This document shows positions 9,717 to 47,170 of a stretch of DNA of 64,000 nucleotides, in pieces. Made by a program: the position numbers and the translations under genes. The notes beneath the pieces were generated by a model that was given only the letters and a program-made list of their open reading frames with translations, was not told the origin of the DNA and did not search any database. This DNA is from Candidatus Levyibacteriota bacterium (lineage in GTDB: Bacteria; Patescibacteriota; Microgenomatia; Levybacterales; UBA12049), in the NCBI GenBank assembly GCA_027459745.1, contig DAIDHL010000001.1, forward strand, positions 168,290 through 232,289. The letters run 5' to 3'. Each line of letters starts with the position of its first letter. The first letter of the stretch is position 1.

Positions 9717-10094
9717 TTATCGAGGTTTATGAGGAGAAAAAGGCATAAGATATCTTTTTTTATATCGGTCAAGTCCATTAGCAATGTCGAAAATATCAGA
9801 GTTATAAGATTCAATTATTGCTTTTGTTATGCCTACTTTGCTTAGGTATACTGTCCGTGCATCCATTTGCACATCTTCACTGTTTAACAAAAAATCTTCA
9901 ACTTTAAATAAGAAACTTTCTTCGTAATGTGGCTGATTACTTATTCTTCTTCGTAATATATCTAAAGGGACTACAGTATATGATCCGTTAATTCCGGGTT
10001 GTTTATTAATTGCATCAAATGTAATTGCGCTTTGTTTGGCATTTACAAAAAGGTTAGACCCCATAACTGTTTCATATAGATCTGGTTTTAACAT
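9717..10094 (-). CDS. hypothetical protein
   Basis: 125-aa ORF packed downstream of the acyl-CoA synthetase; no motif recognised. Confidence 0.35.
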   Translation of the reverse strand: MLKPDLYETVMGSNLFVNAKQSAITFDAINKQPGINGSYTVVPLDILRRRISNQPHYEESFLFKVEDFLLNSEDVQMDARTVYLSKVGITKAIIESYNSDIFDIANGLDRYKKRYLMPFSPHKPR

Positions 10095-10097
10095 AAT

Positions 10098-11747
10098 TTA
10101 ATAATCTTCCAAAGTTGAAATATCTCCGATTGGCTGGCCTAATTCTTTGGCACGTAAGATTCTGCGCATAATTTTACCGCTTCTGGTTTTAGGCAGACGA
10201 TCTATAAACTCTATTTCGCGAGGATATGCATGACCGGCTAAATGAGTCTTAACGAAGTCTGCTAACTCAGATTTAAGTTTTTCGGAGGCCAGTGACTCGT
10301 CTTTCAAAACTACAAAGGCTTTAATAATTTCACCACGAACAACGTCAGGTTTACCAATCACTCCTGCTTCAACCACATCTGGATGTTCAATCAACACACT
10401 TTCAACTTCGAAGGGACCAATGCGTTCTCCAGATGTTTTGATCAAATCGTCTGCCCGCCCTATAAACCAAAAATAGCCTTTCTCGTCCTTTTTGGCTTTG
10501 TCACCCGAAATATACCATTCATCTTTAAAATATGATTTATATTTCTCCTCGTCTTGCCAAATTGTTCGCATAATAGACGGCCAATAGGGTTTGAGACACA
10601 AATTGCCTTCTTCATTGACTACCACCTCTTCCATATTATCATCCATTATTTTTGCTTCTACCCAGGGCAAAGGTTTGCCCATTGATCCGGGATGAATACC
10701 TAGTGAGGGAGTATTGGCAATCATGATAGAACCAGTTTCGGTTTGCCACCAGGTATCATGAAAAAATTTACCAAATACTTTGTTACCCCAAAGGATTGCT
10801 TCAGGATTAAGTGGCTCGCCAACTGAGGCCAAAAAACGTAAACTTGATAGGTCATGTTTTTGTACTAATTCTTCACCTTTAGCCATCAACATGCGGATGG
10901 CTGTAGGAGCTGTATACCATACAGTAACTTTGTGTTTGGCAATTATTTCATACCATTTCTCAGCCTCAAATTTACCACCGTACACGACGGTGGTTATTCC
11001 CAGTGCCCAGTTGCTCAAGATGGAGTAAACAATACCGGTAATCCAGCCGGGATCAGCGGTGCACCAATATACATCATTTGGCTGCAGGTCTAAACATAAT
11101 TTGGCACTGGCAATTTGTTGAATAATTGCATAATGTGCATGTACGATGCCTTTTGGTTTTCCGGTTGTACCCGATGTATAAAGCATAAAAGCATAATCTT
11201 CAGCTTGTGTGTGGGCTGTTTCAAAACTGTCTGATTGAGACTCATATTCAGCTATAAATTCTTCGTTGTCTACAACTAATATAGAACTTAATTCGGATAA
11301 ATCATTTTTAATTTTTTCAACTCTTGGCAATAAATTTTTATTAGTGAAGACAATCTTGCTGCCTGAGTTACTCAATCTATCTTTTAGAGCTTCAGATTCA
11401 AAGGCAGAAAAATATACACTGGCAATAGCTCCAGTTTTCATGATTCCTAAGAAAATATAAAACAACTCGGGGATTCTGGGTAGAAAAATAGAGACTCGAT
11501 CTCCTTTTTTAATACCAATTTGATGTAGATAATTCGCAATTCTATTACTTTTTCTGACCAAACTGAAAAAAGTAATCTCGGTGGTCGTTCCATCTTCTGC
11601 TTCATAAATCAAAGCTGTTTTATTGCCATTGCCTTTTTCAATGTTATGATCCAAGACATTGTAGGCCATATTAAGGCTGCCGTCTTCAAACCAAACTAGC
11701 GAGTCTGGAAGGTTTTGAAAATATTCGGAAGTATATTTATTATCCAT
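10098..11747 (-). CDS. AMP-forming acyl-CoA synthetase (acetyl-CoA synthetase family, short form)
   Basis: YTSGTTGKPKG AMP-binding motif and WWQTETG motif shared with Acs. Confidence 0.8.
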   Translation of the reverse strand: MDNKYTSEYFQNLPDSLVWFEDGSLNMAYNVLDHNIEKGNGNKTALIYEAEDGTTTEITFFSLVRKSNRIANYLHQIGIKKGDRVSIFLPRIPELFYIFLGIMKTGAIASVYFSAFESEALKDRLSNSGSKIVFTNKNLLPRVEKIKNDLSELSSILVVDNEEFIAEYESQSDSFETAHTQAEDYAFMLYTSGTTGKPKGIVHAHYAIIQQIASAKLCLDLQPNDVYWCTADPGWITGIVYSILSNWALGITTVVYGGKFEAEKWYEIIAKHKVTVWYTAPTAIRMLMAKGEELVQKHDLSSLRFLASVGEPLNPEAILWGNKVFGKFFHDTWWQTETGSIMIANTPSLGIHPGSMGKPLPWVEAKIMDDNMEEVVVNEEGNLCLKPYWPSIMRTIWQDEEKYKSYFKDEWYISGDKAKKDEKGYFWFIGRADDLIKTSGERIGPFEVESVLIEHPDVVEAGVIGKPDVVRGEIIKAFVVLKDESLASEKLKSELADFVKTHLAGHAYPREIEFIDRLPKTRSGKIMRRILRAKELGQPIGDISTLEDY

Positions 11748-14578: not shown

Positions 14579-15331
14579 ATGGACGAGCAGACCAAACAAA
14601 AATATCATCAGCTTTTCCTTCAATCAGCCAAGCAATATTTATTCAGTTTTAATACTAATCTAGAAAATTATTTACGTAGTCAGACAGAACAAGCTGCTGT
14701 CGAGCAAATGTTTATTGCAGTGCATTCTATCAGAAGCCAATGCAACGTAATGGGATATCGTGATTTAGGCAACGAGTGCGCTGAGGTTGAGCAAATGCTA
14801 AGACCGCTTAGGGATTCTTCTACCCCGTTGACTTCTGAACAACTGAATTATCTACAGGATAGAGGTAAAAAAATCAATTTGATGTTAGGATCAATTGCCA
14901 TACCAAATACTGAGGTCTTAGTAAATGACCAACAACAAGGCCAGGAATCTCCAGTACAAAATAAAAAAATACTACTGGTTGAAGATGATCATTTTTTTCA
15001 ACAGTTCTATGCTTATAAGTTAAAGCAGAGTGGTTTTATAGTAGAAGAGGCCGCTAACGGTGATGAAGGAATAAAAAAACTAACTACTTTTTTGCCTAAT
15101 ATAGTTTTGTTGGATTTGATTATGCCTGTGAAAGATGGCTTCGAGTTTTTAGCTGAGAAGAAACAGTCTGAATCACAACAAATTGTAAATATTCCAGTGA
15201 TTATTTTTTCAACTCTAGGACAGGAAAAGGATATTCAAAGAGCTAAAGATTTAGGAGCCAATGACTATGTAAATAAGAGTTTTTTTGATTACTCCACACT
15301 TATTCAAAAAGTCCAGCAATTTTTAGGTTAA
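14579..15331 (+). CDS. Hpt-like / receiver (REC) domain response regulator
   Basis: C-terminal REC (KKILLVEDD...LLDLIMPVKDGFEFL...ANDYVNK); N-terminal 110 aa has an Hpt-like AVHSIRSQ (HxxKG-like) helix. Confidence 0.65.
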   Translation: MDEQTKQKYHQLFLQSAKQYLFSFNTNLENYLRSQTEQAAVEQMFIAVHSIRSQCNVMGYRDLGNECAEVEQMLRPLRDSSTPLTSEQLNYLQDRGKKINLMLGSIAIPNTEVLVNDQQQGQESPVQNKKILLVEDDHFFQQFYAYKLKQSGFIVEEAANGDEGIKKLTTFLPNIVLLDLIMPVKDGFEFLAEKKQSESQQIVNIPVIIFSTLGQEKDIQRAKDLGANDYVNKSFFDYSTLIQKVQQFLG

Positions 15332-15440: not shown

Positions 15441-17150
15441 ATGAATATAGCTTTATCAAACCTGCCTATGATCATAAGTGATGTTACGCTTAAAGAAATC
15501 ATTCTGCAAACCAAACTGTTAGATGAGAAAAAAATTGATGAGATGCTGGATTTTGCTAAAAATACACATATCAGTTTGGCAGATGCATTAGTAGAAAAAG
15601 ACTTAATTTCAGATGAGAATCTGGGAATCCTTATTTCTGATGCGCTTAAAATTCCATTCATCGTTTTGTCCAAAATAGTATTAGATCCACAAGTAGCCCG
15701 AATTATCCCTGAACGTATAGCTCTCAAACATCATACCATTCCCTTTGCCATCGAAAATCAAACGGTTAAGATCGCTATGTCTGACCCATCAGATAAAGGT
15801 ATCCAGGACATCATTGCAAGAAAAACCAACATGCAGGTGATAGCATATTTAGCCACAGAAAGAGATATTTATGCCTCACTGCGTATTTATCAGAAAAATT
15901 TGCAAAAGTCGTTTGACGAATTAATCGAAGACGAAGTTAGAAAAAGTGGCCATGTAAAAAATGACGCGCCTATAGCTAAGATTGTTGACTTAGTTATTCG
16001 CTATGCCTATCAGGATCGCGCGTCGGATATCCATATTGAACCGGAAGAGTTAAATTCTTTAGTTCGTTTTCGTGTCGATGGCATTTTACATGATGTCTTG
16101 TTTTTACCTAAATCTTTACATGACCAGGTTATCAGTAGAATTAAAGTATTATCACGTTTAAGGACTGATGAGCATTTAGGTCCGCAAGACGGGAAAATGC
16201 GAGCTAAGTTAGAAGAGGAAGATTTAGATATTCGTGTATCTATCCTTCCAGTCGTAGATGGTGAAAAAGCTGTTTTGCGTTTACTTGCCTCGAGATTTCG
16301 CAACTTTTCTTTGCTTGATTTAGGCATGACGGAAGAAGATTTAAAAATTGTCACTGATGGATTCAATAAGTCATTTGGTATGGTTTTATCTACTGGACCT
16401 ACGGGTTCAGGTAAAACGACATCTATTTACTCTATTTTAAAGATTTTAAATATTCGAGAGAAAAATATTACAACCATTGAGGATCCTGTGGAGTATCGTA
16501 TCAAAGGTGTAAATCAAATTCACGTAAATCCGAAATCGGGTTTAACTTTTGCCGATGGATTACGTTCTATTTTGCGTCAAGATCCCAATATCGTTTTTGT
16601 CGGTGAAATTCGTGACAATGAAACTGCGGAAATCGCGGTAAATGCAGCTTTAACCGGACATCTAGTTCTTTCTACACTTCACACCAATGATGCCGCAACT
16701 ACCTTACCTCGTTTGACAGACATGGGAGTTGAACCTTTCCTAGTAGCCTCAACTGTAAATGTGATTTTTGCACAAAGGTTGGTGCGTAAAATTTGTGAAA
16801 TGTGTAAAACGTCTGTTACAGTTGAAAGAAAGAAGCTTATAGAACATATTTCTGAGGGAGAAATTTCCAAGTTTTTCCCTGCCAATCAGCAGATCATGCT
16901 TTATCAAGGAGCAGGCTGTAAGGTTTGTCATAATACTGGGTATGAAGGAAGAATTGGAGTGTTTGAAGTTTTAAAAGTAACAAAAAACATTCGTGATTAT
17001 ATTTCGCAAAAAAAAGATGCCGATTTTATTCAACGTGTAGCCGTTGAAGAGGGTATGAGAACCATGCTAGAAGATGGGTTGTCCAAAGTAGCTAGAGGTT
17101 TAACTACAATTGAAGAAGTATTACGCGTAACCAAGGTTGAATCAGAATGA
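15441..17150 (+). CDS. pilB: type IV pilus assembly ATPase PilB (GspE family)
   Basis: GspE-N domain, Walker A GPTGSGKTTS, tetracysteine motif CEMCK...CKVCHNTGYEGRIGVFEV. Confidence 0.9.
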   Translation: MNIALSNLPMIISDVTLKEIILQTKLLDEKKIDEMLDFAKNTHISLADALVEKDLISDENLGILISDALKIPFIVLSKIVLDPQVARIIPERIALKHHTIPFAIENQTVKIAMSDPSDKGIQDIIARKTNMQVIAYLATERDIYASLRIYQKNLQKSFDELIEDEVRKSGHVKNDAPIAKIVDLVIRYAYQDRASDIHIEPEELNSLVRFRVDGILHDVLFLPKSLHDQVISRIKVLSRLRTDEHLGPQDGKMRAKLEEEDLDIRVSILPVVDGEKAVLRLLASRFRNFSLLDLGMTEEDLKIVTDGFNKSFGMVLSTGPTGSGKTTSIYSILKILNIREKNITTIEDPVEYRIKGVNQIHVNPKSGLTFADGLRSILRQDPNIVFVGEIRDNETAEIAVNAALTGHLVLSTLHTNDAATTLPRLTDMGVEPFLVASTVNVIFAQRLVRKICEMCKTSVTVERKKLIEHISEGEISKFFPANQQIMLYQGAGCKVCHNTGYEGRIGVFEVLKVTKNIRDYISQKKDADFIQRVAVEEGMRTMLEDGLSKVARGLTTIEEVLRVTKVESE

Positions 17151-18202
17151 AACTAGCAGATATATCAATATCAACAAATGAAGAGATAAATTTAATTAGC
17201 AACATGTCTACCATGTTGAAGGCTGGTATTCCGATTATAGAAGTCATAGACTCGCTTTTAGAAGATTCAAAAGGACATCTCAAAATTGTTTTAGAAACAC
17301 TGCGTGCTGATTTGATGCAGGGTAAAAGAATTTATACATCTTTCTCCAAATTCCCTAAGATCTTCGATAGTGTAACAATTAATCTTATTCGTGCAAGTGA
17401 AGAAGCTGGGACGCTAGATGTTTCTTTGGAAGATTTAAAAATAAACATTCAAAAACAAATGGAATTTAATGATCAGATAAGAGGGGCTATGATTTATCCT
17501 GTTTTTATTATATTTGTCTTTTTTAGCGTGATGATAGTGATATTAATTGTAGTTATCCCTAAAATTTCCACCGTATTTTCTAGTTTGGGGGCTACCTTGC
17601 CTTTGCCAACGCAGATTATGATTACAGCCTCAAATTTTTTGCTTAAAAATACGCTTGAAGCTGTTACTAGCGCTGTTTTAATAACAGCTTTTATTCTTTA
17701 TATGATTCGTAAACAGAAAAAATTCTTAATAAGAATGCTCTTAAGTCTTCCTGTTATCTCCAAACTTGGTAAAGAAATAGATATTGCCCGTTTTACCCGG
17801 AGTTTGTATTTGTTACTTAATTCTGGTTTACCCATAGGCAGTGCTTTAGCGTTGGCAGGTTCAGTGGTAAATAAAAAAGATGTTGCACTGGCCATTGAGC
17901 ATTCCAGACAAGTTGTTTTAGCGGGTAAAAATTTATCCGAAGGGTTTAAATCTCATAAAGATATTTTTCCCAGTATGATTATTAAAATTACTGAGGCAGG
18001 GGAGAGAAGTGGTTCCTTAGATAAATCTATGCAGGATGCCTCGATTTATCTGGATTATCAAGTTTCACAGACCCTGAAAACAGTAACAGCATTAATAGAG
18101 CCTGTGATGTTGGTAGTAGTTGGTTTGTTAATTGGTGGCATGATGTTAGCGATCATTGCGCCAATGTACGGAATGATCAGCCAGATCAGCAACCCGCAGT
18201 AA
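17147..18202 (+). CDS. pilC: type IV pilus platform protein PilC (GspF family)
   Basis: Two GspF-like repeats, polytopic membrane protein, coupled to the pilB stop. Confidence 0.8.
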   Translation: MKLADISISTNEEINLISNMSTMLKAGIPIIEVIDSLLEDSKGHLKIVLETLRADLMQGKRIYTSFSKFPKIFDSVTINLIRASEEAGTLDVSLEDLKINIQKQMEFNDQIRGAMIYPVFIIFVFFSVMIVILIVVIPKISTVFSSLGATLPLPTQIMITASNFLLKNTLEAVTSAVLITAFILYMIRKQKKFLIRMLLSLPVISKLGKEIDIARFTRSLYLLLNSGLPIGSALALAGSVVNKKDVALAIEHSRQVVLAGKNLSEGFKSHKDIFPSMIIKITEAGERSGSLDKSMQDASIYLDYQVSQTLKTVTALIEPVMLVVVGLLIGGMMLAIIAPMYGMISQISNPQ

Positions 18203-18213
18203 TCCTTAAATTT

Positions 18214-18699
18214 ATGACAAGGAATGTACAAAAAGGTTTTACTATTATCGAACTAGTTGTTGTAGTAGTTCTTTTTATAACAATTTCCGCTTTTGTTACG
18301 ACTAATTTAATTGGTGCGCAGCATAGTGCAAGTCTTTCAACTGCCATGTCCATTTTGGTGGCAGATATTAAAAATCAACAAAGTTTGGCTTTGACGGGCA
18401 AGAATAGTTTGGGTTCGAATGGTAATTACTTTGGAGTTCATTTTGATACTAATTCTTATACATTGTTTAGTGGATCTGTCTATAATCCTTCAGGTTCTAA
18501 TAATCAAACAATAAATTTAGATCCTGAGTTTCAGTTCACCAATATTACGCTTACCAATGATAATCTGATTTTTATTCCATTAAATGGTGAAGTATATGGT
18601 TACAGCTCTAACACAAACTCAGTTGAGTTACTGGATACTGTAAGTAATCAACAAAAAATTCTGCAGTTTAATTATTTAGGAGTAATTACAAATGATTAA
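18214..18699 (+). CDS. prepilin-type N-terminal cleavage/methylation domain protein (minor pilin)
   Basis: QKG|FTIIELVVVVVLFITI class-III signal peptide with Glu+5. Confidence 0.7.
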   Translation: MTRNVQKGFTIIELVVVVVLFITISAFVTTNLIGAQHSASLSTAMSILVADIKNQQSLALTGKNSLGSNGNYFGVHFDTNSYTLFSGSVYNPSGSNNQTINLDPEFQFTNITLTNDNLIFIPLNGEVYGYSSNTNSVELLDTVSNQQKILQFNYLGVITND

Positions 18700-20698
18700 A
18701 ATGAAAGGACAAACTTTAGTCGAATTATTAGTCACAATCGGCTTGGCAGCTATTTTGTTGCCAGCACTACTTGTTGGATCTTATGCATCCAACAGTGGTC
18801 GTGCACAAAATGAGCAACATATTCAGGCTTACACCATGATTCAGGCTATGGAGGAAGAAATGCGGAGTATTCGTGAGGGCAGCTGGTCAGCTATAGCAAA
18901 TGATGGAACTTATTATATAAAAAATGCCGGAACAACCTGGACTTTAGCTTCTGGTACACTCACTGCTAACGGCTTTACCCAGCAGGTAGTAATAGGAGAT
19001 GTATACCGTAATAGCTCAGGTAATATTACCACGTCGGGTGGAACGATAGATCCTTCGACTAAGTCCATAACAATTACAGTTTCTTGGAATTATCCTTATC
19101 CTTCTTCAAGCTCAGAAACATTTTACCTAACTCGATATCTTAATAATTATTCTAAAATTGATACGAGTGTCACCGATTTTAATGTCGGTACTTTGATAGG
19201 TACTGCAGTTACTAATACCAATGGTGGTGAAGTCACTTTGGGTAATGGAGGAAATGCGGACTGGTGCAAACCACAAGATTCCCTGATAAACACTTTAACT
19301 ATGCCCAAACAAGCTAATACCATTATGGCACTCCCTGGAGAAGCATACGTAGGAACAGGGGACGGAACTTCAGGGGTAACATTCGTTAATGTCGGCATCA
19401 CACAACCTTTGCCTCCAGCTACACCTTCAGCTTCGATTGTAGGGACGTATTCAAGTAGCTACAAAACAAATGCTATCTTTTCAGACGGAAGATATGTTTA
19501 CTTAGCTACAGATGGATCTGCTCAACAGGTATTGATTTTGGATACTTCTTCTACCCCGTATAGCGTAATTGGAACTATATCAGTTCCAAGTGGAGTAGGG
19601 GCAAATGGTGTATATGTTTATAATAATACAGCTTATGTTACTAGTTCCAACAAGCTGTATACTTTTGATGTTACTACCAAAACAGGTGCCCATACTACCC
19701 CTTTGACATCCATAACAATGTATTTTAGCTTTTTTAGTCCTAATCCATTGGCAAAGCAGGTTGTAGTGTCTAATGGGTATGCTTTCGTAGGAACGGCAAA
19801 CACTCTATTTGGGTTGCAGAAATTTAAAATAATTAACAATGGTTCGTCTTTAGGTTTAGTTGGGGTATCTAATTTCACATGGAATCAATCATCTGAGGGA
19901 TTGGCTGTCAACAGTGACGGAACAAGAGCTTATATAGCTTTTGACAAAGGTAGCGGCTTTGGTGCATTATTTCCAGATGGCTTTTTTATAGTCGATACTT
20001 CCTATCCGGATCAAGGCTCTTGGTGGTCCCAGTTTTTTCCTAATTTTTATAACATAATTGGAACCTATAATTCAGGAGCTACCGATCCGGATGGCATGGC
20101 AATTGCCGCATCAAACAGAGCCATATTAGTAGGAAATGGCGGATCACAACAATATCAGGTTATAGATACATCCAATGAAGCTCATCCTGTTTTATGTGGA
20201 GGTATGAGTTTTTCACAAGGAATATTTGGTGTTTCTACCGTATTACAGTCTAATGGTTATGCGTACTCTTACATAATTTCAGGTGAAAGTAAAGATCAGT
20301 TTAAAATTATCGAAGGAGGAGTAGGAGGATCATATTCAGATTCTGGCACTTACGAATCTAAAACTTTTGATGCTAGTGCGCAGGCAGCATTTAATAGTGT
20401 GTACGTAGATATTAGCCAGCCTCCTTTAACTCAAATAAAAATGCAGGTTGGTGTAACAAATCCTGTGAGCGGAAGCTGCGGCAATGTTCCTTCTTTTACA
20501 TATGTAGGGCCAAATGGAGACCCAACACAGTATTTTACCTCATCTTCCTCAGCTATCATGGCACCCATACCGATTGGTTCATATGGAGCAAATTATGCTA
20601 ATCCAGGTCAGTGTTATCGTTATAAACTTTGGCTTTCAACTAATAGTCTGACTCAATTACCAGTAGTTTACGATGTGTCGACTAATTACTCACTATGA
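18692..20698 (+). CDS. large (668 aa) prepilin-like protein, putative pilus-tip/adhesin subunit
   Basis: MKG|QTLVELLVTIGLAAILL prepilin N-terminus followed by about 630 aa of S/T/G/N/Y-rich sequence. Confidence 0.6.
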   Translation: MIKMKGQTLVELLVTIGLAAILLPALLVGSYASNSGRAQNEQHIQAYTMIQAMEEEMRSIREGSWSAIANDGTYYIKNAGTTWTLASGTLTANGFTQQVVIGDVYRNSSGNITTSGGTIDPSTKSITITVSWNYPYPSSSSETFYLTRYLNNYSKIDTSVTDFNVGTLIGTAVTNTNGGEVTLGNGGNADWCKPQDSLINTLTMPKQANTIMALPGEAYVGTGDGTSGVTFVNVGITQPLPPATPSASIVGTYSSSYKTNAIFSDGRYVYLATDGSAQQVLILDTSSTPYSVIGTISVPSGVGANGVYVYNNTAYVTSSNKLYTFDVTTKTGAHTTPLTSITMYFSFFSPNPLAKQVVVSNGYAFVGTANTLFGLQKFKIINNGSSLGLVGVSNFTWNQSSEGLAVNSDGTRAYIAFDKGSGFGALFPDGFFIVDTSYPDQGSWWSQFFPNFYNIIGTYNSGATDPDGMAIAASNRAILVGNGGSQQYQVIDTSNEAHPVLCGGMSFSQGIFGVSTVLQSNGYAYSYIISGESKDQFKIIEGGVGGSYSDSGTYESKTFDASAQAAFNSVYVDISQPPLTQIKMQVGVTNPVSGSCGNVPSFTYVGPNGDPTQYFTSSSSAIMAPIPIGSYGANYANPGQCYRYKLWLSTNSLTQLPVVYDVSTNYSL

Positions 20699-21216
20699 AG
20701 AAAAAAATTTCCAAACTATATCTAATGTTAAAAAATCCTAAAGGTTTTACTTTGGTAGAGATGTTGCTATATATGGCTATTTTTTCGATATTGATGGGAG
20801 TACTGATACAGATATTTTTTTCAGCAATTGATACTCAGTTGACGTCTAAAGCAACTTCTAGCGTAGACCAGGACGGAGCATATATCTTATCCAGATTAAA
20901 TTATGATATCTCCCGCGCACAAGCTGTAACATCTCCCAGCAGTTATGGAGTTGGTGCTAGCTCATTGTCTTTACAAATAGGAGGAGCTTCATATACATAT
21001 TCTTTAGATTCTAACGAAAATTTAGTTCTAAACAATACTTATGGCATAAATCAATTAAATAGTGTGGACACTGTATTGAGTAACCTTTCCTTTACCAGAA
21101 TAGGTAATCCGGGCGGTAAAGATACAATTCAGCTTAATTTTCAGCTCAAAAGTACGACTCAAAGAAACACTGGTTATGAATTAAGAAATTTTACTACAAC
21201 AGTAAGTTTGCGTTAA
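20695..21216 (+). CDS. minor pilin / pseudopilin
   Basis: KG|FTLVEMLLYMAIFSIL with extended leader. Confidence 0.65.
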   Translation: MKKKISKLYLMLKNPKGFTLVEMLLYMAIFSILMGVLIQIFFSAIDTQLTSKATSSVDQDGAYILSRLNYDISRAQAVTSPSSYGVGASSLSLQIGGASYTYSLDSNENLVLNNTYGINQLNSVDTVLSNLSFTRIGNPGGKDTIQLNFQLKSTTQRNTGYELRNFTTTVSLR

Positions 21217-21217
21217 T

Positions 21218-21598
21218 ATGAAGCACTTAACTCAAAAAGGACAAGCATTGATAACTTTACTATTATTTGTAATTATTTCTGTTACGATTACGAGTGGTGC
21301 AATTATAGTTATTTTATTAAACTCACGCAATGTAACACAAATTTCTCAGGCTGGAACTTGTAAAGTTATTGCGGAAACAGGAGCAGAAAATGCATTGTTG
21401 CGCATCTTGCGAGATCCAAGTTATACTGGAGAAGTAATGTCCTTGGATGGTGGCTCAACTACCGTGCAAGTGGCTAGTAGTGGAGGAACCTTCACCATTA
21501 CATCGTCAGCTACACTTGATTCATATCATAGTACTATTCAAGTAGTAGCTAATGAAACTAATGATGTGATGAGTGTATCTTCCTGGAAGGAGTTATAA
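21218..21598 (+). CDS. minor pilin-like (Glu+5 missing, PilX/GspK-like)
   Basis: KG|QALITLLLFVIISV; Thr replaces Glu+5. Confidence 0.55.
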   Translation: MKHLTQKGQALITLLLFVIISVTITSGAIIVILLNSRNVTQISQAGTCKVIAETGAENALLRILRDPSYTGEVMSLDGGSTTVQVASSGGTFTITSSATLDSYHSTIQVVANETNDVMSVSSWKEL

Positions 21599-22767: not shown

Positions 22768-23232
22768 ATGAGTAGTGCAAAAAGTCTTAAATTTCAAAAA
22801 GGGTTTACGTTAATCGAGCTTTTGATGGTTATTGGAATCTTATCTGTTTTAGTTGGCATTGTATTAGTAGCGATTAACCCTTCTAATCAATTTAAGCAAG
22901 CGAATGACACGAAGAGACAAAATGATGTAGTGGCAATTCTTGGAGCAATCGGACAATATCAGGCAGATCATAATGATGCTCTTCCAGCTGGTTTATCATC
23001 TAATATGTCGTCTACAGAACTTTCCAGTAATGGAGCTAATATTTGTGCTAGTCTTGTCCCAGCTTATATAGCAGCTTTACCTGAAGACCCATTAATATCT
23101 GGTGGAGTAGGAATTACTAACTGTAGTAGTAATTATGATACAGGTTATACCATCGCAATTTCAGCTACAAATACAATTACAATTGCGGGCACAGCTGAAA
23201 TGCCAGGAGTGACTATATCAGTAAGTAGGTGA
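22768..23232 (+). CDS. type IV major pilin
   Basis: FQKG|FTLIELLMVIGILSVLVGIVLVAI with Glu+5 and ANDTKRQNDV hinge typical of T4a pilins/GspG. Confidence 0.75.
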   Translation: MSSAKSLKFQKGFTLIELLMVIGILSVLVGIVLVAINPSNQFKQANDTKRQNDVVAILGAIGQYQADHNDALPAGLSSNMSSTELSSNGANICASLVPAYIAALPEDPLISGGVGITNCSSNYDTGYTIAISATNTITIAGTAEMPGVTISVSR

Positions 23233-27628: not shown

Positions 27629-28318
27629 ATGAAAAAGGAGTTTATAATAGATTCAAGAATAATAAATAATCTTGATGCTGCATCAGATGGGAAACAAAGT
27701 AAAGGGCAACATCCTTTAAGAAATCCTCTTATCAGGAGGATTTTTGATTCATTGATTGTTAACGGAATGGAGTATTTCTCAGTTCATGATACATTAAATA
27801 TAAACGGTGAAACAACTTTCTGTTTGCAAGCTTTTCCATATGTGAATGAAATCAAAGATGTTGAGACTTTTCTGGATAAAGTAGGTCAATTATATAAATG
27901 GTTAACTATGTTTACAGATGCAAAGTGGACTGAAAAACCTTTTGAAGTTGGGCATACAAGCGCAGAGAGTTTATATTTAGGTTCTTTGGAGACTACAAAT
28001 TATTTTCCAGTTTCAGAAAAGTATAGAGCCTCATATCATGATGTATTAAGAGAATATACGAGAACGCATAAACGAAATGCGAGGTTTTGGCGAAAATTAA
28101 ATGAGTGGTACTTAGAACGTTTGGCTGTCGAAGCAAATAGAGAGTATTATAAAACAAATATTCAGGTCATCCCATATCCAGCAAGAAGATTTGCAGAGGC
28201 AGGAAGAATGTCATCTTTAAGAAAAGGGCAAGCGAGAGTAAGTCATCAAATGGTTATTCAGTCCACAAGAAATCCGGGACTTAACAATGCGCAGTTTATA
28301 TCATTATTGAATGAGTAA
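27629..28318 (+). CDS. hypothetical protein
   Basis: 229-aa ORF, no motif recognised. Confidence 0.4.
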   Translation: MKKEFIIDSRIINNLDAASDGKQSKGQHPLRNPLIRRIFDSLIVNGMEYFSVHDTLNINGETTFCLQAFPYVNEIKDVETFLDKVGQLYKWLTMFTDAKWTEKPFEVGHTSAESLYLGSLETTNYFPVSEKYRASYHDVLREYTRTHKRNARFWRKLNEWYLERLAVEANREYYKTNIQVIPYPARRFAEAGRMSSLRKGQARVSHQMVIQSTRNPGLNNAQFISLLNE

Positions 28319-33351: not shown

Positions 33352-33399
33352 ACGTAAATATTATAATATTATTGATAGTATATCAACAATTCAAAAATT

Positions 33400-33567
33400 T
33401 CGGTCAAACTTACATAGATCCTAAGCCGGGGGTTCTTCGTGTGCTGCTTGGTTCGATATGTCCCGCTGGGTTGGCATGGTCATATTCTGGCTTATCGAAT
33501 CGCGAGTTTAACAAGCAATATCAGGCTATTCTTGATATAGGAAGTGGTAATTTTGCAATGAGTACCC
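33400..33567 (+). repeat. direct repeat copy A (168 bp; 164/168 identical to 39820-39987, last 131 bp perfect)
   Basis: Direct sequence comparison; mismatches only in the first 40 bp. Confidence 0.9.
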
Positions 33568-34695: not shown

Positions 34696-37131
34696 CTAAA
34701 AAATTTCAGATATTTTTTTTGCTGATTGAAGTAGCTCATATTTTGTATATCGTGGACTTTGTAGATTAATTCTGGGATTGTCTAAATGTATTGGGTTAAT
34801 TTGATAGATATCAGACAAAAATAGTTTAAATTTGCCGGTTTTCTCGTAAGGTTCTATGTTCTTAATTTTACCCATCCATCTTATTACTTTATTTGGTGCT
34901 ACTTCATATAATGCAAGATATTTGAGCTTCTTTTTTGCCTCGGGAGATAGTTTAACTGCCCACCAGGCATGCTGTTCAATAAATGCTCGGCTAAGACCGT
35001 CATTTTTTGTTGCGCAAATGATAGTATCATAATCTTTATCTATAGATTTAGCTACCCTAAAAACCTTCTTTTCAGGAATATGATCTTTTTGTACAATCTC
35101 AACTGGTTGTTTTGATTTTTCTAGTCTAGAGAATATTCTATCAAACCATTCGATCGCAGATTCCCCGTCTTTTCTAATCAACGGATCGCTATCTTTTGCA
35201 TGAGCTATATCATTACGATATTCCCTTAAATCAGTAAGCCTTTTTTGTAATTCTTCCTTAGAGCCGAAAATTGCTTCAAATAGATTCCAGTTTTTTAGTA
35301 TAATCTTTTGATAATCTCCCACATCACAATAATTCAGATAATCTCTTGTAGAAAAGTCAGTAAGATTTTTATATGGATTACGCTTAAGCTCTGAAGCTAT
35401 TTTAATACTTACATTAACCTTAGTATCCTCAGGTATAGATGTATTCCAATAACCTTGATTTACTGATAATGCTGTTTGTATTGTATCTCTTAGTCTTACC
35501 TCAATCATATCTATCGCTTTTTTAGGATCATTTGATAGTAGCTGCATAATTCTGCCTCCAGTTACTTTTTTAAATTCTTCAAAAATATAATTGGCTCGTT
35601 CTAGGATGAATTGTTCATATCGATTATTTTCAACTGCTTGGCTATAAGGAATCATTTGCACTTTTAGTGTTTCTCCAAAATTTGGATTTTCCTTGCTATA
35701 AGTACTAAAATAATCGCTAGGCGCTTGTTTGGAAATCTCTTTATTAAGTTCTGCAGGGATGAAACAGAAGTTAGCGATTGAGTATTCACTATACTTTATA
35801 CCTTTTGATCTTGATTTTAGGAATTCTTTAGGAAATATATGATGTCTCTCAGCAAGGTTTATGCTTGCACATATGGAATCATCTAAAATAATATTATTAT
35901 TGTTTTTAAAATGCTTGGGACTTTTGCTGGCTAAAAGACAAAAGAAAACATTTCTAAGTGAGGATTTCGTTGTTATTTTTGTTTCGATAATTTCTTCTGG
36001 GGTAAGCGTAATTGGATAGTTAATTTCTACGTTGTCCTTTCCTTCAATAAAGCTGTCAAATATATCTTTTCGATCTTCCCACATGTGTGTATCACGTTGA
36101 CTACCGTATCTTTCGCTTAAGGAAGCTTTCCAAAACCATTCCTGAACTTTTTTGGTTACATTTTGGTTGAATGATGCTTTTGGATATTTATAATAAAGAT
36201 ATATAAGAAGAGAGAGAATTGCAGGGTATGGTAAAAATTCATATGTTTTTACTCCTAAATTTGCAGTAAGATGATCCACAGCTTTTTCTACAGATTGGCA
36301 TACTTTAGGCCATGCTGATTTAATCTCTTCTTTTTTAAGTTCAAATAAATATTTTTGGTTACAATATCCTTTAATAATTAACGCAATAGCTAATAATACT
36401 GGTTCTATTGGAATTTCTCCAAAAGATTTTTTGTCATTTATACTCTTACTTAAGGCCTCATACTTCTCTCGTATGTCAAAATCATCTCCCCACGTACTTG
36501 CGACAACGAGGTCAAAAACTGATAGTTTTTTGCCTCCTTGATTAATTCTTTCAAATATTTCAATCGCATCAGCGAGTTCTTTCTCTTTTACGCTAATTAC
36601 AGATAAAGGGTAATTAGCAAAAATTCCAGTCAGTTTTTGAAATATCTTTTTTCTTTCATCAGTCAAGTTCTTAAATATTTCTAAGGATGTTTCCTGACTA
36701 AAGATATCTCTTACAGAAGCAAAATGATTATCTTTTGTCTCTTCCTCGAAAAAAACCTCATCATCAAAATTAAAGCAGATATTACCATAATTAATGGTAT
36801 CTACTGTTAATCCATTAAACGTAACAAATAAAGCAGTCGCTCTTTGTTGTCCATCAAGAATGTATCTCAAATCTGAGTGGCCGTCTGGTTTTGGTAAATT
36901 TAATTCAGGGAAATCCTTATAAAAAAGATTATATTGTCTATCTGCGTCCCAAACAAAAAAACTTCCTATTGGATACTCTCTATATATTGAGTCTAGCAAG
37001 TCAATAATTTTTTTACGTCCCCACACGAATTTTCTCTGAAAACGCGGTATGCGGAGTGTTCCATTTGATATATCGTAAAGAAGATTAGATAATTTGTAAT
37101 TTGATTTTATTTCAATCTTAGATATTTCCAT
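34696..37131 (-). CDS. GmrSD-like nuclease: DUF262 (ParB-like) + DUF1524 (HNH/His-Me) + C-terminal HEPN-like RNx3H domain + unknown C-terminal module
   Basis: RIPRFQRKFVW...YPIGSFF...LDGQQRATAL (DUF262); ERHHIFPKEFL...NFCFIPAELNK (DUF1524); EYRNDIAHAKD (Rx4H); final 150 aa unassigned. Confidence 0.7.
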   Translation of the reverse strand: MEISKIEIKSNYKLSNLLYDISNGTLRIPRFQRKFVWGRKKIIDLLDSIYREYPIGSFFVWDADRQYNLFYKDFPELNLPKPDGHSDLRYILDGQQRATALFVTFNGLTVDTINYGNICFNFDDEVFFEEETKDNHFASVRDIFSQETSLEIFKNLTDERKKIFQKLTGIFANYPLSVISVKEKELADAIEIFERINQGGKKLSVFDLVVASTWGDDFDIREKYEALSKSINDKKSFGEIPIEPVLLAIALIIKGYCNQKYLFELKKEEIKSAWPKVCQSVEKAVDHLTANLGVKTYEFLPYPAILSLLIYLYYKYPKASFNQNVTKKVQEWFWKASLSERYGSQRDTHMWEDRKDIFDSFIEGKDNVEINYPITLTPEEIIETKITTKSSLRNVFFCLLASKSPKHFKNNNNIILDDSICASINLAERHHIFPKEFLKSRSKGIKYSEYSIANFCFIPAELNKEISKQAPSDYFSTYSKENPNFGETLKVQMIPYSQAVENNRYEQFILERANYIFEEFKKVTGGRIMQLLSNDPKKAIDMIEVRLRDTIQTALSVNQGYWNTSIPEDTKVNVSIKIASELKRNPYKNLTDFSTRDYLNYCDVGDYQKIILKNWNLFEAIFGSKEELQKRLTDLREYRNDIAHAKDSDPLIRKDGESAIEWFDRIFSRLEKSKQPVEIVQKDHIPEKKVFRVAKSIDKDYDTIICATKNDGLSRAFIEQHAWWAVKLSPEAKKKLKYLALYEVAPNKVIRWMGKIKNIEPYEKTGKFKLFLSDIYQINPIHLDNPRINLQSPRYTKYELLQSAKKISEIF

Positions 37132-37178: not shown

Positions 37179-37958
37179 CTACTCATCCACAATCTTCATC
37201 CAGTTTCCCCACGTATGCTTTGTACCAATCAAGGTATCTTTTGTAGTCACATAGATGCTAACTTCTCCCCATTCCTCTCGTAACACAGTACGAGCGCACC
37301 GCATCACTTTTTTCTGTTCATAGGAAGTCTGTGTAACAAGCAGAAGTGTAGGGAATGCTATCTTCATGACGTCTTCATCCCAAGTATCCGCACAAGTGAA
37401 ATATCTTCGAATTTTACTTTTAATAAATCGTTTAGGTATCTTTTCATCAAACAGTTCAAGAAAATAATATTTAGTCTTTGTCCCTTGCTTCGTTACAGAG
37501 AAATAGCCATCAGCTGGGGGTTGCGGAAGATCAACATAACTCGTGAGTTCTATCTTACTAAAAAATGAGACGTCTTTGTCTTGCTCCTTGTAATACTGCT
37601 TTAAAGAGTAAGCAATCTTAGCAATATCACAACAATGGATTTGAAACCGTTGACTCCGTTGCTTTTCTCGATACAGTTGTGACAATATATATGCCTCACA
37701 GTCCTTTTGTGATTTCAAAATCTTCGCTGCTTTACTGGATAAACAATATATTGCCGGCTTAGTACGATTGATAAATGAAGCTTTATCATAAAACTGAACA
37801 ATATATCCTTTATCTACTAAATCTTTAAGCCATTGCTGAATACGAGTAGGGAGTTTATGTTTTAAATAGAGTTGAATAGTTGGTGTATCTAAGAATCTGA
37901 ATTGGTAGAGTAAAAGCATGATAGCTAATTGTTTTTTTGTTATTTTAAATTCTGGCAT
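37179..37958 (-). CDS. Replic_Relax-like winged-helix protein (putative relaxase/replication-relaxation family), paralog of 61670-62434
   Basis: LYQFRFLDTPTIQLYL...IQQWLKDLVDKGYI N-terminus and clear similarity to the second copy (FVTTKD, YYFLELFDE/RYFLDYFDE). Confidence 0.5.
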   Translation of the reverse strand: MPEFKITKKQLAIMLLLYQFRFLDTPTIQLYLKHKLPTRIQQWLKDLVDKGYIVQFYDKASFINRTKPAIYCLSSKAAKILKSQKDCEAYILSQLYREKQRSQRFQIHCCDIAKIAYSLKQYYKEQDKDVSFFSKIELTSYVDLPQPPADGYFSVTKQGTKTKYYFLELFDEKIPKRFIKSKIRRYFTCADTWDEDVMKIAFPTLLLVTQTSYEQKKVMRCARTVLREEWGEVSIYVTTKDTLIGTKHTWGNWMKIVDE

Positions 37959-38483: not shown

Positions 38484-40016
38484 ATGGCTGGAGCTGAACT
38501 AACTAAACAAGCAATTATTTACATCCGAGTCTCAAGCGAAGAACAGGTTGAAAATTTTTCATTGGATACACAAGATGATATTTGCAGAAAAGAAGCAACT
38601 AGGCGAGGTTTTCAAATAATTGAAATCTTTCGGGAAGAAGGAAAGTCTGCAAAAACTATAACGGGCAGACCAGAGTTGATGAAGCTATTAGATTATTGTC
38701 GAAGAAACCGCAGACATGTTGATGCAGTATTTGTATACAGACTTGATCGTATATCTCGACAAACATCTGACTACTTAGCTATTCGAAAACGCTTGGCAGA
38801 TTATGGCATTTCCTTAATTTCAGCTAATGAACCTACTGGAAACTCCCCAACAGAGAAATTATTGGAAACAATTATTGCCAGTTTTGCTCAACATGATAAT
38901 GATGTTCGTTCAGAACGAACAAAAAATGGCTTACGCACAAGATTTCTTGCTGGTATGTGCACGGGCAAAGTGCCAATAGGATACGTTATGGAAGGCGGTT
39001 ATGCAGTAAAAGATAAAAATTTTGAAAATATGAAGAAAGCTTGGAATCTTATGGCAACAGGAACAAAGAGTCTTTCAGAAATGGCTGCGATTATGAATGA
39101 ATGGGGAATACGAAAAGTTGTTGCTGGTAAAGAGCATAAACTACGAATGCAAACAGTCGGTAGATTATTTAGACATAAATTTTATATGGGTGTTCTGACC
39201 TCTACAAAATATCCAGAAGAGATTCGAGGACAACATGAGGCAATGGTAACGGAAGAGCAATTTTATAAAGTACAAGCAATTATAGATGGCAGGAATGTCA
39301 GTGGGATGACTATTGGTAAGCGACTCAATGAGAACCCAGATTTTCCTTTACGACGAGTAATTAAATGTGGAAAATGTGGAGGAGTTTTATCCGGCGCTTG
39401 GAGTAAGGGGAGATCAAAACGATATGCTTACTATATCTGTAAAAACCGTTGTGGTGCTCCATCTATTGCTGTTAAAAAATTGGACGACTCACTCATACAA
39501 TACTTCCAAGATATTACGCCTACTAAAGATCAACTAGATGTATTTCTGATTGTGTTAAGAAAAATGTTTTATCAAAGCCTATCGGGGCTTCAAGCAAAAC
39601 GAGTGATAGCTCAAGAAGAAATATATAAGCTAAAACAAATGAGACAAAAGCTTGTAGAAAAAAATTTGGCAGGGGTCTATTCAGATGAGATATTTAAAGA
39701 GCAAAGGGTTATTATTGAAGACAAAATTGCTACTGCTGAAAGTATTTTAGGACAGACAATTTTTGATAAATACAATTTTGATGATGTCGAGAAATTTATG
39801 CGTGCAAAATTTAAGGATCTCGGTCAAACTTACATAGATTCTGAGCCTGGGGTTCGTCGTGTGCTGCTTGGTTCGATATGTCCCGCTGGGTTGGCATGGT
39901 CATATTCTGGCTTATCGAATCGCGAGTTTAACAAGCAATATCAGGCTATTCTTGATATAGGAAGTGGTAATTTTGCAATGAGTACCCCATCTGGGACGAT
40001 GTTCGTACCTATCTAG
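38484..40016 (+). CDS. large serine recombinase (resolvase/invertase N-domain + recombinase domain + zinc ribbon)
   Basis: AIIYIRVSSEEQ catalytic Ser motif, ...VYRLDRISR; CGKCGG...C zinc ribbon; 510 aa. Confidence 0.85.
   Translation: MAGAELTKQAIIYIRVSSEEQVENFSLDTQDDICRKEATRRGFQIIEIFREEGKSAKTITGRPELMKLLDYCRRNRRHVDAVFVYRLDRISRQTSDYLAIRKRLADYGISLISANEPTGNSPTEKLLETIIASFAQHDNDVRSERTKNGLRTRFLAGMCTGKVPIGYVMEGGYAVKDKNFENMKKAWNLMATGTKSLSEMAAIMNEWGIRKVVAGKEHKLRMQTVGRLFRHKFYMGVLTSTKYPEEIRGQHEAMVTEEQFYKVQAIIDGRNVSGMTIGKRLNENPDFPLRRVIKCGKCGGVLSGAWSKGRSKRYAYYICKNRCGAPSIAVKKLDDSLIQYFQDITPTKDQLDVFLIVLRKMFYQSLSGLQAKRVIAQEEIYKLKQMRQKLVEKNLAGVYSDEIFKEQRVIIEDKIATAESILGQTIFDKYNFDDVEKFMRAKFKDLGQTYIDSEPGVRRVLLGSICPAGLAWSYSGLSNREFNKQYQAILDIGSGNFAMSTPSGTMFVPI
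39820..39987 (+). repeat. direct repeat copy B (inside the 3' end of the serine recombinase gene)
   Basis: See copy A. Confidence 0.9.
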
Positions 40017-40086: not shown

Positions 40087-40578
40087 ATGTTAGATTTCTG
40101 GAAACGAAAACAAACAAAGGTTGTTTCAGTTTTGCTTACCTCAATTCTACATGATGAAACAACATTTTATCAAGCATTCTTAAAAGATTTACAAGCTGCA
40201 AAAAGAGAGGTCATCATTGAGAGTCCGTATATTACGAGTTATCGAATGCGGATGCTTTACCCAATCTTTGCAAAATTACTTCATCGAGGGATAAAAGTAT
40301 TTATCATAACTCGTCCTCCACAAGAGCATGACAGCGAAAAGATGCGTGCACAAGCAGAGATAGAAATTCGTCGCTTTGAACAAATTGGCATTCAAGCACT
40401 CCTTTGTGTTGGTAGTCATCATAGAAAGCTTGCAATGATTGATCGGAATATTTTATGGGAAGGTAGCTTAAATATTCTCTCTCAGTCATACAGTCGGGAA
40501 TATATGCGAAGAATTGCCAGTCACCAAATCACACAGGATACCTTTATATTTTTAAAATTTGATAAGATTATTTATTGA
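40087..40578 (+). CDS. PLD-family (single HKD) nuclease, Nuc-like
   Basis: GSHHRKLAMIDRNILWEGSLN contains HxKx4D; 163 aa as in plasmid Nuc endonucleases; strong RBS AAGGAGG. Confidence 0.7.
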   Translation: MLDFWKRKQTKVVSVLLTSILHDETTFYQAFLKDLQAAKREVIIESPYITSYRMRMLYPIFAKLLHRGIKVFIITRPPQEHDSEKMRAQAEIEIRRFEQIGIQALLCVGSHHRKLAMIDRNILWEGSLNILSQSYSREYMRRIASHQITQDTFIFLKFDKIIY

Positions 40579-44762: not shown

Positions 44763-45348
44763 AGGTATTTGCTAAGAGCATATCAATTGTTTGACCTTTC
44801 AATGCCTGTGTTTTGATTTGAGATGGATTGTAAAAGGAATAAAAAAGATCGAGTAATTCAAGACTTGTTACTTGTCGTGCTTTCATCCCTAATTTTTCTA
44901 TTCCTTTACTCACAATATCTCGTTGCAAGTGAAGATGCTCTTTGACTGTTGCAAAATCGTTCTGTTTTCCGATGTGACGATAAGGAATAACGACGTAAAA
45001 TCGGCGGGAAAGAATTTTATTGCCGGACACCATTTGTTTGATAAAGGAACAATAGGTATCAATTTGCTCTTTGTACATTGTTTCTTTCTCCTGTAATTTT
45101 TTGGCTTTAATCTGTTCCACATAGGAATCAATATCAACTTCACGAACTCTGATTAGCATTTGCAAAGGACAAGGCAATGAGTTTAAAAAGTTTTGAAAGC
45201 TATCAATCAGCACATCTTGCTCTTCCTCACTTTTTAATTCAAAATTAATACTCGATGTTTCAAGCACCAAACGATATTCATTATTTGGTAATACTAAGAT
45301 ATTATCCTTTACTTCTTTAATCTGAATTTGTCGGCGGCTGCTCGCCAT
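44755..45348 (-). pseudogene. VirB4 N-terminal (CagE/TrbE/VirB-type) domain as a separate 197-216-aa ORF, so split or frameshifted virB4
   Basis: YRLVLETSSINFELKSEEEQDVLIDSFQNFLNSLP...RRFYVVIPY aligns to the first 200 aa of VirB4 proteins; combined length 826 aa equals intact VirB4. Confidence 0.5.
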
Positions 45349-45349
45349 C

Positions 45350-45865
45350 TTATTTGATTTGTTCAAGACCAACATCGAGTCCTCCTTTCTTATTTGTTTT
45401 GACAAAAAATGTAAACGCAGGATTTTGCAATACAGTTTCCAGTCGTATCATGTCTGCCCCTTCTAATACGGGAACTACCGTTTTCTCTTTGGCGGTTGAC
45501 CTCATCTTCTTAAAAATTTTGAATGGTTTCTTTTCAATTTTCGGCAGATACATCTCACGTAAGTAGGTCTCATTTTTATTCAGCACATACCATCTTGGTC
45601 GAAGATTATATCGAAGTAAAATACCTGCCCAATTCAAGACAACCTTTCCTTTTATCCGCAGCGAAAGAGTGACACAAATGATCGCAACAATAAACGCGAT
45701 AACAATTTTTATCACACTCACATGGAGTTTCGGTGGAAGAAGAATAAATTCGACTGTTGTCCAGAAGACAGGAACCATTAATAAAAGAAGTTGTGTCAGA
45801 TTTAAACTCCCTGCAATTCGGTCTTCAACTGTCGTAATTTGAGCTGGAATCACTCTTGTTCTCAT
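45350..45865 (-). CDS. small two-TM membrane protein, VirB3-like (putative)
   Basis: Position immediately upstream of virB4, hydrophobic hairpin LLLLMVPVFWTTVEFILL...VIKIVIAFIVAIICV. Confidence 0.35.
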   Translation of the reverse strand: MRTRVIPAQITTVEDRIAGSLNLTQLLLLMVPVFWTTVEFILLPPKLHVSVIKIVIAFIVAIICVTLSLRIKGKVVLNWAGILLRYNLRPRWYVLNKNETYLREMYLPKIEKKPFKIFKKMRSTAKEKTVVPVLEGADMIRLETVLQNPAFTFFVKTNKKGGLDVGLEQIK

Positions 45866-47157: not shown

Positions 47158-47170
47158 ACTATAAATACTC

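Follow-up and report, generated by a model that had tools for sequence, protein, structure and literature searches.

The question raised by this locus is what a 668-amino acid (aa) prepilin-like protein does in a type IV pilus (T4P) operon. The gene lies in a 64,000-nt stretch of DNA (i.e., the window analyzed here) from a Candidatus Levyibacteriota bacterium (assembly GCA_027459745.1, contig DAIDHL010000001.1, positions 168,290 to 232,289). A sequence-only reading had described the protein as a giant minor pilin encoded inside a T4P operon, a description that was confirmed for this Patescibacteria genome, as the gene is accompanied by PilB, PilC, and four further prepilin-like genes; the same reading had regarded the protein as a likely target of diversifying selection. 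Our analyses favor, as a reasonably probable interpretation, that the protein (hereafter, the large pilin) is a modular core minor pilin of the Levybacterial T4P, functionally a fusion of PilV and PilY1, that probably presents a binding head at the pilus tip. In the structural model, the N-terminal 146 residues represent a predicted prepilin-type module onto which a propeller of 350 residues and a sandwich of 125 residues appear to have been grafted. The coordinates of the domains and of the genes in the pilus cluster are given in Table 1.

The large pilin is encoded by a real, uninterrupted open reading frame (ORF) with class III signal peptide features, as the sequence-only reading had proposed. 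The ATG at 18692 is preceded by an AGGAG motif 9 nt upstream; it overlaps the stop codon of the upstream minor pilin gene (mpH), while the stop codon of the large pilin gene overlaps the start of the downstream minor pilin gene (mpJ) by 4 nt, and these two overlaps suggest translational coupling within the minor-pilin cassette. The closest orthologue (locus L001) starts at the equivalent of 18701 (MRG...) and is restricted to this start because an in-frame stop sits just upstream; a class III signal peptide results from either start. The N-terminus reads MIKMKG/QTLVELLVTIGLAAILLPALLV (the slash marks the predicted cleavage site), i.e., a short basic leader with a terminal Gly, followed by a Glu at +5 and approximately 20 hydrophobic residues. 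In an alignment of 36 N-terminal modules, neither Gly(-1) nor Glu(+5) varies, and both are at least 90% conserved across 100 homologues. The Pfam N_methyl model (PF07963) matched the large pilin with 16.6 bits (E 0.006), under the 21.2-bit cutoff, probably due to the unusual Gln at +1; precomputed PF07963 matches are present in three homologues (P0045, P0047, and P0082), and TIGR02532 matched 3/36 family members at E ≤ 0.1. Richness in serine, threonine, glycine, asparagine, and tyrosine, which had also been pointed out from the sequence, was reproduced, with these residues representing 47% of positions 41–668 as compared to 26% in 17 other proteins of the window. This richness is common to the whole pilin set rather than special to the large pilin, because a similar proportion of these residues (41–48%) is found in each of its four smaller counterparts in the operon.

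An AlphaFold2 (AF2) model built on a 100-sequence alignment showed a mean predicted local distance difference test (pLDDT) score of 91.5 and a predicted template modeling (pTM) score of 0.75; residue numbers used here are counted from the Met at 18701. A lollipop pilin fold is predicted at the N-terminus, with a helix at residues 4–60 followed by six strands (69–76, 79–84, 87–89, 92–103, 115–129, and 135–144; pLDDT 75–96). The region assigned to the propeller contains 29 strands between residues 195 and 540, and the C-terminal all-beta domain (548–664) is modeled as a galactose-binding-domain-like sandwich of the discoidin/CBM32-like fold class. The expectation of a beta-propeller or a lectin-like fold is thus matched on both counts in the AF2 model, which contains a seven-bladed propeller as well as the sandwich. 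Searches of PDB sequences with the full protein and with N- and C-terminal profiles yielded only matches of the alpha1 helix to major pilins (E ~0.1).

The propeller repeats appear to be of the LVIVD type. While the match of PF08309 (LVIVD) to the large pilin reached 16.3 bits, below the 20.2-bit cutoff, homologues reached 37.2 (P0010), 35.4 (P0006), and 31.9 bits (P0013), and precomputed PF08309 matches were present in approximately 45 of 120 listed homologues; because homologues reach 32–37 bits, the family can be assigned by its sequences to the LVIVD type, with the large pilin as a degenerate member. IPR013211 is the entry that we take to represent the LVIVD repeat. Four cysteines are invariant, two at the two ends of the propeller (C189 and C499) and two in the sandwich (C593 and C638), suggesting that one disulfide probably clamps each propeller and another is probably present in the sandwich.

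Gene order and the sequence of the pilin module place the large pilin in the same class of minor pilins. The N-terminal 150 residues of 36 family members, scanned singly against NCBIfam, matched ComGE (the GspI-equivalent of Com pili) in 21/36 cases (best E 2e-07), with 4, 1, and 9 matches to XpsI, GspI, and GspH, respectively; the score of the large pilin itself against ComGE was 16.1 bits, as compared to a 49-bit cutoff. These matches support, without settling, the view that the pilin module is most like ComGE/GspI-class minor pilins, in agreement with the gene order. The minor-pilin cassette, which lies beside the assembly genes, can be read from its sequences as H-I-J-K with the large pilin in the second (I) position, because the fourth minor pilin (mpK) lacks Glu5 while mpH, mpJ, and the large pilin retain it; Glu5 was absent in all eight mpK orthologues read. 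Absence of Glu5 is a hallmark of the GspK/PilX-type capping subunit in the tip complexes of type II secretion systems (T2SS) and T4P. Standard GspI/PilV/ComGE-class pilins are single-module proteins of approximately 80–190 aa. The large pilin is a modular derivative rather than a standard member of this class, because its 668 aa include approximately 520 residues of additional domains; it shows the architecture that defines modular type IV pilins in the sense of Raynaud et al. 2021 (PMC8179133), i.e., a pilin module (residues 1–146) followed by other modules that are not specific to T4P biology, here the propeller and the jelly-roll.

The pil cluster is compact and all its genes are co-directional. 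The order PilB–PilC–mpH–large pilin–mpJ–mpK–PilM/N-like–major pilin is kept in every related locus that is long enough (L001–L013; these loci were found with an 11-sequence alignment). In a Shapirobacteria locus (L013), the mpH–large pilin–mpJ core is kept and other genes separate this core from PilB/PilC, while a locus encoding a two-propeller variant (L012) keeps the gene order with extra genes inserted.

A word-indexed search identified 159 homologues, more than 100 of which are full length (approximately 620–700 aa) with 34–91% identity; their source names refer to Patescibacteria, Levybacteria, or Shapirobacteria proteins, or to "pseudopilin PulG". The closest genome is a Candidatus Levyibacteriota metagenome-assembled genome (MAG) of the Microgenomates group. 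An exhaustive profile search identified at least 1,569 representatives of 50%-identity clusters at E ≤ 1e-30, the best 150 of which are mostly full length. Given the 159 homologues and 1,569 cluster representatives, these comparisons place the ORF and its operon far beyond a chance observation. Some homologues differ in the number of propellers. Variants of approximately 1,020 aa contain a tandem duplication of the propeller module (query residues ~185–535) in which each copy keeps its own DWCxP...CGG cysteine pair; the linker at residues 147–186 is not duplicated in these two-propeller variants, and the repeated unit of P0010 begins at query residue 185. Representatives of 1,267 and 1,998 aa presented 7 and 11 matched stretches, respectively, and copy-number variants include P0010 (L012, 7001–10048), P0005–P0015, P0233, and P0250. 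The propeller module, judged from these homologues, behaves as an evolutionary cassette present in one, two, or many copies, and its copy number, rather than sequence hypervariability, appears to be the main axis of variation in the family. Six of the contigs carrying related pil operons (L003, L005, L006, L009, L010, and L011) belong to MAGs labeled "uncultured Gammaproteobacteria" or "Candidatus Sulfotelmatobacter sp.", labels that probably represent placeholder taxonomy or bin contamination.

The proposal that the large pilin is a target of diversifying selection was contradicted by its conservation. Surface-exposed adhesins of episymbionts are often variable, and diversity-generating retroelements (DGRs) are common in Patescibacteria; a hypervariable tip adhesin, possibly diversified by a DGR, is therefore a general expectation for such a protein. 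The large pilin is 90.5% identical to its syntenic L001 orthologue, with a nonsynonymous divergence (dN) of 0.054 and saturated synonymous sites; the ratio of nonsynonymous to synonymous divergence (dN/dS) was 0.01–0.05 in every 60-codon window with estimable dS, and sliding-window identity ranged from 83 to 97%. Compared with the flanking pil genes, it ties with PilC (90.6%) and exceeds the minor pilins mpK (86.5%), mpH (80.7%), and mpJ (79.9%), as well as the PilM/N-like protein (75.1%) and the major pilin (56.2%); PilB is 94.6% identical. The 90% cluster of the large pilin holds two sequences, the protein of the window and P0001. At eight more distant syntenic loci, the large pilin is 52–62% identical, level with PilC (54–69%), while identities of mpH (36–50%), mpK (31–56%), and the PilM/N-like protein (22–40%) are below those of the large pilin; in nine loci, no other pilin reaches its level of conservation.

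Across 100 homologues, column entropy was flat (1.2–2.4 bits per 20-residue window, mean 1.73), with mean identities of 44–51% per domain; among the ten closest relatives the propeller was the most conserved domain (67% versus 53–59%). Besides the general expectation stated above, the only point in favor of a hypervariable adhesin is a slight excess of variability and indels in blades 3–5 (residues 281–460), where entropy reaches 2.4 bits; no block of the protein is hypervariable, and the C-terminal fold differs from the C-type-lectin fold that DGR targets typically have. Within the 64-kb window, the gene at 18692–20698 takes part in no direct or inverted repeat, and thus in no template repeat/variable repeat (TR/VR) pair, and the 39 ORFs scanned, a set that does not cover every small ORF, yielded no reverse transcriptase (RVT) domain. 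The large pilin is therefore a conserved protein without enrichment of variable regions, essentially the result that the sequence-only reading had given as grounds for its refutation, and a hypervariable adhesin under diversifying selection is a reading that is already largely refuted and almost certainly wrong.

Among the pil genes, the major pilin (22768–23232, + strand) is the fastest-evolving one relative to L001, with the highest dN/dS in the cluster (0.21); should any of these genes experience diversifying pressure, the major pilin would be the one. Another ORF (27629–28318, + strand; 229 aa), which has no Pfam match, is 23% identical to the syntenic L001 gene, while its flanking genes are 79–88% identical, which suggests a gene replacement or very rapid divergence.

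The favored interpretation combines a modular pilin with a role at the pilus tip. The ORF, signal motif, fold, synteny, and conservation were computed directly; we infer processing, tip incorporation, ligand binding, and the disulfides. The leader would be cleaved by a prepilin peptidase, after which the large pilin would assemble through its alpha1 helix with mpH, mpJ, and the Glu5-less GspK-like cap. The resulting complex of four minor pilins may prime pilus polymerization on PilC/PilB and would then end up at the filament tip, with the propeller and sandwich forming a bulky distal ligand-binding head. The ligand would most likely be a glycan or another conserved surface structure of the partner cell. 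A role as a tip adhesin is plausible by analogy with other modular pilins and with PilX2 of TM7x. Because its conservation matches that of PilC, the large pilin probably has a conserved ligand or partner, is probably required for pilus biogenesis or function, and is probably not an exchangeable, host-specific variable adhesin. Conservation of this degree points to an essential structural role, to a ligand that is itself conserved, or to both.

Several observations weigh against this interpretation. None of the matches to ComGE and GspI reaches its curated cutoff, and the alpha1 helix accounts for a large part of the similarity; the presence of Glu5 means that the large pilin is not the terminal cap. 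Neither a prepilin peptidase (Peptidase_A24) nor PilT was found among the 39 window ORFs scanned. The disulfides are proposed from invariant cysteine pairs, while pilus membership, tip location, and binding are all argued by analogy. In addition, host-specific adhesins are not usually so conserved, and a structural or assembly role would explain the conservation just as well.

The last point leads to a reading in which the large pilin is mainly an assembly or anti-retraction factor, with a head that primes or stabilizes the pilus, or docks the tip complex to the cell envelope or to an S-layer conduit, and for which ligand binding is secondary. Such a factor would parallel PilY1, which primes pili and antagonizes retraction. 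In favor of this reading, the large pilin equals the machinery protein PilC in conservation and exceeds all other pilins, and its conservation is spread uniformly over the domains, with the propeller ranking first when close relatives are compared; the gene is also always present in the minor-pilin cassette, in an operon without PilT. However, PilX2, the propeller-bearing minor pilin that is the one tested precedent in Patescibacteria, is dispensable for filament extrusion and needed for efficient host binding (PMC11623550). The discoidin/CBM32-like fold class of the C-terminal domain is typically ligand-binding, and duplication of the propeller resembles valency tuning of a binding head. A predominant assembly role is the main rival and appears rather unlikely, although the protein could combine assembly and adhesin functions.

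Strong conservation would also be explained by an invariable ligand such as DNA, and the large pilin might be the DNA receptor of a competence-type (Com-like) pilus, with a head that captures extracellular DNA for uptake as a source of the nucleotides that small-genome bacteria need. In sequence, the pilin module comes closest to ComGE, a minor pilin of Com pili, other minor pilins of the operon weakly match ComGD, ComGF, and ComGG-type models, and WD40-type propellers, including those of DDB1 complexes, were among the Foldseek matches. The DDB1 matches are, however, generic propeller matches, and lysine and arginine together account for 4.0% of the head as compared to a background of 11.3%, a composition unfavorable for DNA binding. 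The ATPase of the operon is PilB/MshE-like, with an MshEN domain, rather than ComGA-like (539 versus 243 bits; the PilB model is TIGR02538, with a cutoff of 676 bits that the ATPase does not reach), and the propeller-bearing T4P-2 of TM7x does not contribute to competence. Taken with this evidence, a DNA receptor is very unlikely, and we retain the interpretation of a modular core minor pilin with a tip-located binding head.

Table 1. Position, strand, and supporting evidence for the large pilin, its predicted domains, and the neighboring genes of the pil cluster (positions are those of the window)
Feature	Position	Strand	Evidence or remark
668-aa putative modular minor pilin (large pilin)	18692..20698	+	uninterrupted ORF; alternative start at 18701 gives 665 aa
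Class III signal peptide and alpha1 helix, residues 1–60	18701..18880	+	G3 (-1) and E8 (+5) conserved; AF2 helix 4–60
Predicted pilin globular beta-sheet, residues 61–146	18881..19138	+	six AF2 strands; invariant W62, D117, and W129
Predicted beta-strand linker, residues 147–186	19139..19258	+	AF2 strands at 150–180
Predicted seven-bladed beta-propeller, LVIVD-type repeats, residues 187–540	19259..20320	+	invariant W188-C189 (DWCxP motif) at start; invariant C499
Predicted C-terminal jelly-roll beta-sandwich, residues 541–665	20321..20695	+	invariant C593 and C638; terminal NYS motif
Hpt and receiver-domain response regulator, first gene of the pil cluster	14579..15331	+	PF01627 Hpt, E 7e-08; PF00072 Response_reg, E 5e-21
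PilB-type assembly ATPase with MshEN N-terminal domain	15441..17150	+	PF00437, E 4e-128; PF05157, E 3e-16
PilC/GspF platform protein	17147..18202	+	PF00482, E 1e-46, two stretches; GspF/PilC NCBIfam matches
Minor pilin mpH, GspH/FimU-like, leader MTRNVQKG/FTIIE	18214..18699	+	PF07963, 23.4 bits (above cutoff)
Minor pilin mpJ, GspJ/ComGF/PilW-like position, leader ...KNPKG/FTLVE	20695..21216	+	PF07963, 34 bits
Minor pilin mpK, 126 aa, GspK/PilX-like, KG/QALIT without Glu at +5	21218..21598	+	weak GspK match, E 1e-03
Membrane-spanning putative assembly protein in the PilM/N position, 386–396 aa	21573..22763	+	role assigned from position only
Major pilin, 154 aa, GspG/ComGC-like, leader MSSAKSLKFQKG/FTLIE	22768..23232	+	PF07963, 30 bits; TIGR02532, 30 bits

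Besides the large pilin, several genes of the pil cluster showed features of their own. The response regulator at the start of the cluster is found in the same position in four other loci (L001, L004, L009, and L012). Among the small minor pilins, mpH matched GspH (E 3e-05) and ComGD (E 1e-03), both under the respective cutoffs, and mpJ presented weak matches to ComGF, GspJ, and GspH. The protein in the PilM/N position had no significant Pfam, PDB, or PHROG match; it is syntenic in all loci, yet its identity is merely 22–75%. As listed, the ORF for this protein has a GTG start that overlaps mpK; because the L001 orthologue (386 aa) begins directly downstream of mpK, translation probably initiates at the ATG at 21600 (MPENKTF...). 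An extra gene encoding a protein of approximately 300 aa, without a Pfam match, is located between the large pilin and mpJ in three loci (L007, ~9971–10891; L009, ~9959–10908; and L012, 10045–10965). In L012, a gene approximately 4.8 kb downstream of the large pilin encodes a protein of 1,262 aa in which RCC1 propeller and Peptidase_M23 domains are combined.

Elsewhere in the window, a 266-aa DsbA/Thioredoxin_4 protein is encoded at 54053–54853 (+ strand), which is compatible with disulfides in exported proteins like the four-cysteine pilin. The only long repeat of the window, a direct repeat of approximately 170–180 nt (33388–33567 and 39808–39987; 96% identical, 6.4 kb apart), was considered as a TR/VR pair and rejected, as its mismatches are not adenine-specific. 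One copy of the repeat forms the 3′ terminus of a gene for a large serine recombinase (with Resolvase, Recombinase, and Zn ribbon domains), while the other lies inside a small ORF; the repeats bracket genes for a Replic_Relax protein and an 811-aa protein with GmrSD_N and HEPN, and next comes a gene for a PLD-like nuclease (genes in this region are located at 34696–37131 and 37179–37958 on the - strand, and 38484–40016 and 40087–40578 on the + strand). From its gene content, this region looks like an integrated mobile or defense island with an att-like duplication. Conjugation or type IV secretion system (T4SS)-like genes are present on the - strand and encode a VirB4/TraG-P-loop ATPase (42930–44762), a TraC-like protein (44755–45405), a 463-aa protein with a T4SS_pilin domain (45862–47253), and a coupling-protein-like ATPase (62582–63979).

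Among Microgenomates such as Levybacteria, no member is known from culture. The family of the large pilin is among the most conserved extracellular proteins of the Microgenomates pilus system and carries a predicted head of a ligand-binding type; this conservation, along with the confidently predicted head, makes it a practical target for recombinant expression, glycan-array, pull-down, antibody, or cryo-electron tomography labeling experiments directed at the binding partners of these cells. If the favored interpretation holds, the theme of a propeller-bearing minor pilin in partner binding, described in Saccharibacteria, would extend to a second major lineage of Patescibacteria.

Both the FimU-PilV-PilW-PilX set of type IVa pili (T4aP), with PilY1/PilC, and the GspH-I-J-K set of T2SS comprise four minor pilins with a Glu5-less K-type cap, matching the cassette found here; the priming and tip-located role proposed for the large pilin follows by analogy from these tip complexes (PMC7541494, as cited in PMC11623550; discussed in PMC8179133). 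As in the T4aP PilY1 system, a seven-bladed propeller would be displayed with minor pilins, here from within the minor-pilin operon, a likeness of function and architecture only. Membership in the PilY1/PilC adhesin family was rejected, as no PilY1-type domain (Neisseria_PilC/IPR008707) was present and the large pilin is itself a pilin; while PilY1 is a non-pilin with a Sec-type signal, the large pilin combines a class III signal peptide with a pilin module of its own. By this analogy, one polypeptide would do the job of PilV plus that of the non-pilin PilY1 of Proteobacteria.

The large pilin was also compared to tail nozzle proteins of podophages (e.g., Pa223, 9nwi_Y; GP4, 8jov_A; and Sf6 gp8, 7sg7), with identities of only 8–12%, low global TM-scores (0.33–0.41), and an entirely different context; a PHROG sequence search with the large pilin yielded no match. 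This likeness probably reflects a shared domain combination rather than demonstrable homology. A fusion of a PilV-class pilin and a PilY1-like head into a single essential, conserved Microgenomates subunit, with a head that shares ancestry with podophage nozzles, is a long shot. If true, a phage host-penetration module would be linked with the apparatus that episymbionts use for contacting other cells, and one conserved head found in more than 1,500 sequence clusters would provide a handle for identifying the attachment targets of Microgenomates.

Among known modular type IV pilins, PilB and PilC of Streptococcus sanguinis contain a vWA and a ConA-like lectin module, respectively (PMC8179133, PMC9934059). 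These pilins and the large pilin share a small N-terminal class III pilin module, a bulky C-terminal graft, and predicted exposure at the tip; the graft is a propeller and jelly-roll in the large pilin. A survey of modular pilins lists architectures in which a pilin module (IPR012902) is combined with IPR013211 repeats, including a protein of the candidate phyla radiation with 12 copies, and assigns no known function to the IPR013211 motif (PMC8179133). No pilin with IPR013211 is known to have been studied.

Modular pilins and propeller-bearing tip proteins are thus already known, and the locus described here reveals no new kind of system; what it adds is an uncharacterized family that is very widespread in Microgenomates-type Patescibacteria and has a module type unlike those of PilX2 and PilY1. 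The closest precedent is PilX2 of the Saccharibacteria, a T4P-2 minor pilin of Nanosynbacter lyticus TM7x with a heptabladed RCC1 propeller; deletion of PilX2 significantly reduced host binding without preventing filament extrusion, and a role as a lectin-like tip adhesin has been proposed (PMC11623550). PilX2 and the large pilin are both Patescibacteria minor pilins encoded in a pilus locus, and in both a seven-bladed propeller comes after a lollipop pilin module. However, PilX2, which was compared by its description, has a propeller that consists of RCC1 repeats and resembles PLL-type fucose lectins, and it has no predicted PilD signal peptide, while the large pilin has no RCC1 Pfam match, LVIVD-type repeats in a WD40-like geometry, the canonical Gly-1/Glu+5 signal (G/xxxxE), and an extra C-terminal jelly-roll. 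Pilins of the PilX2 system are poorly conserved across Patescibacteria, whereas the family of the large pilin is strongly conserved across hundreds of Microgenomates-type genomes. By analogy, the large pilin may perform a PilX2-like job in the Levybacterial pilus.

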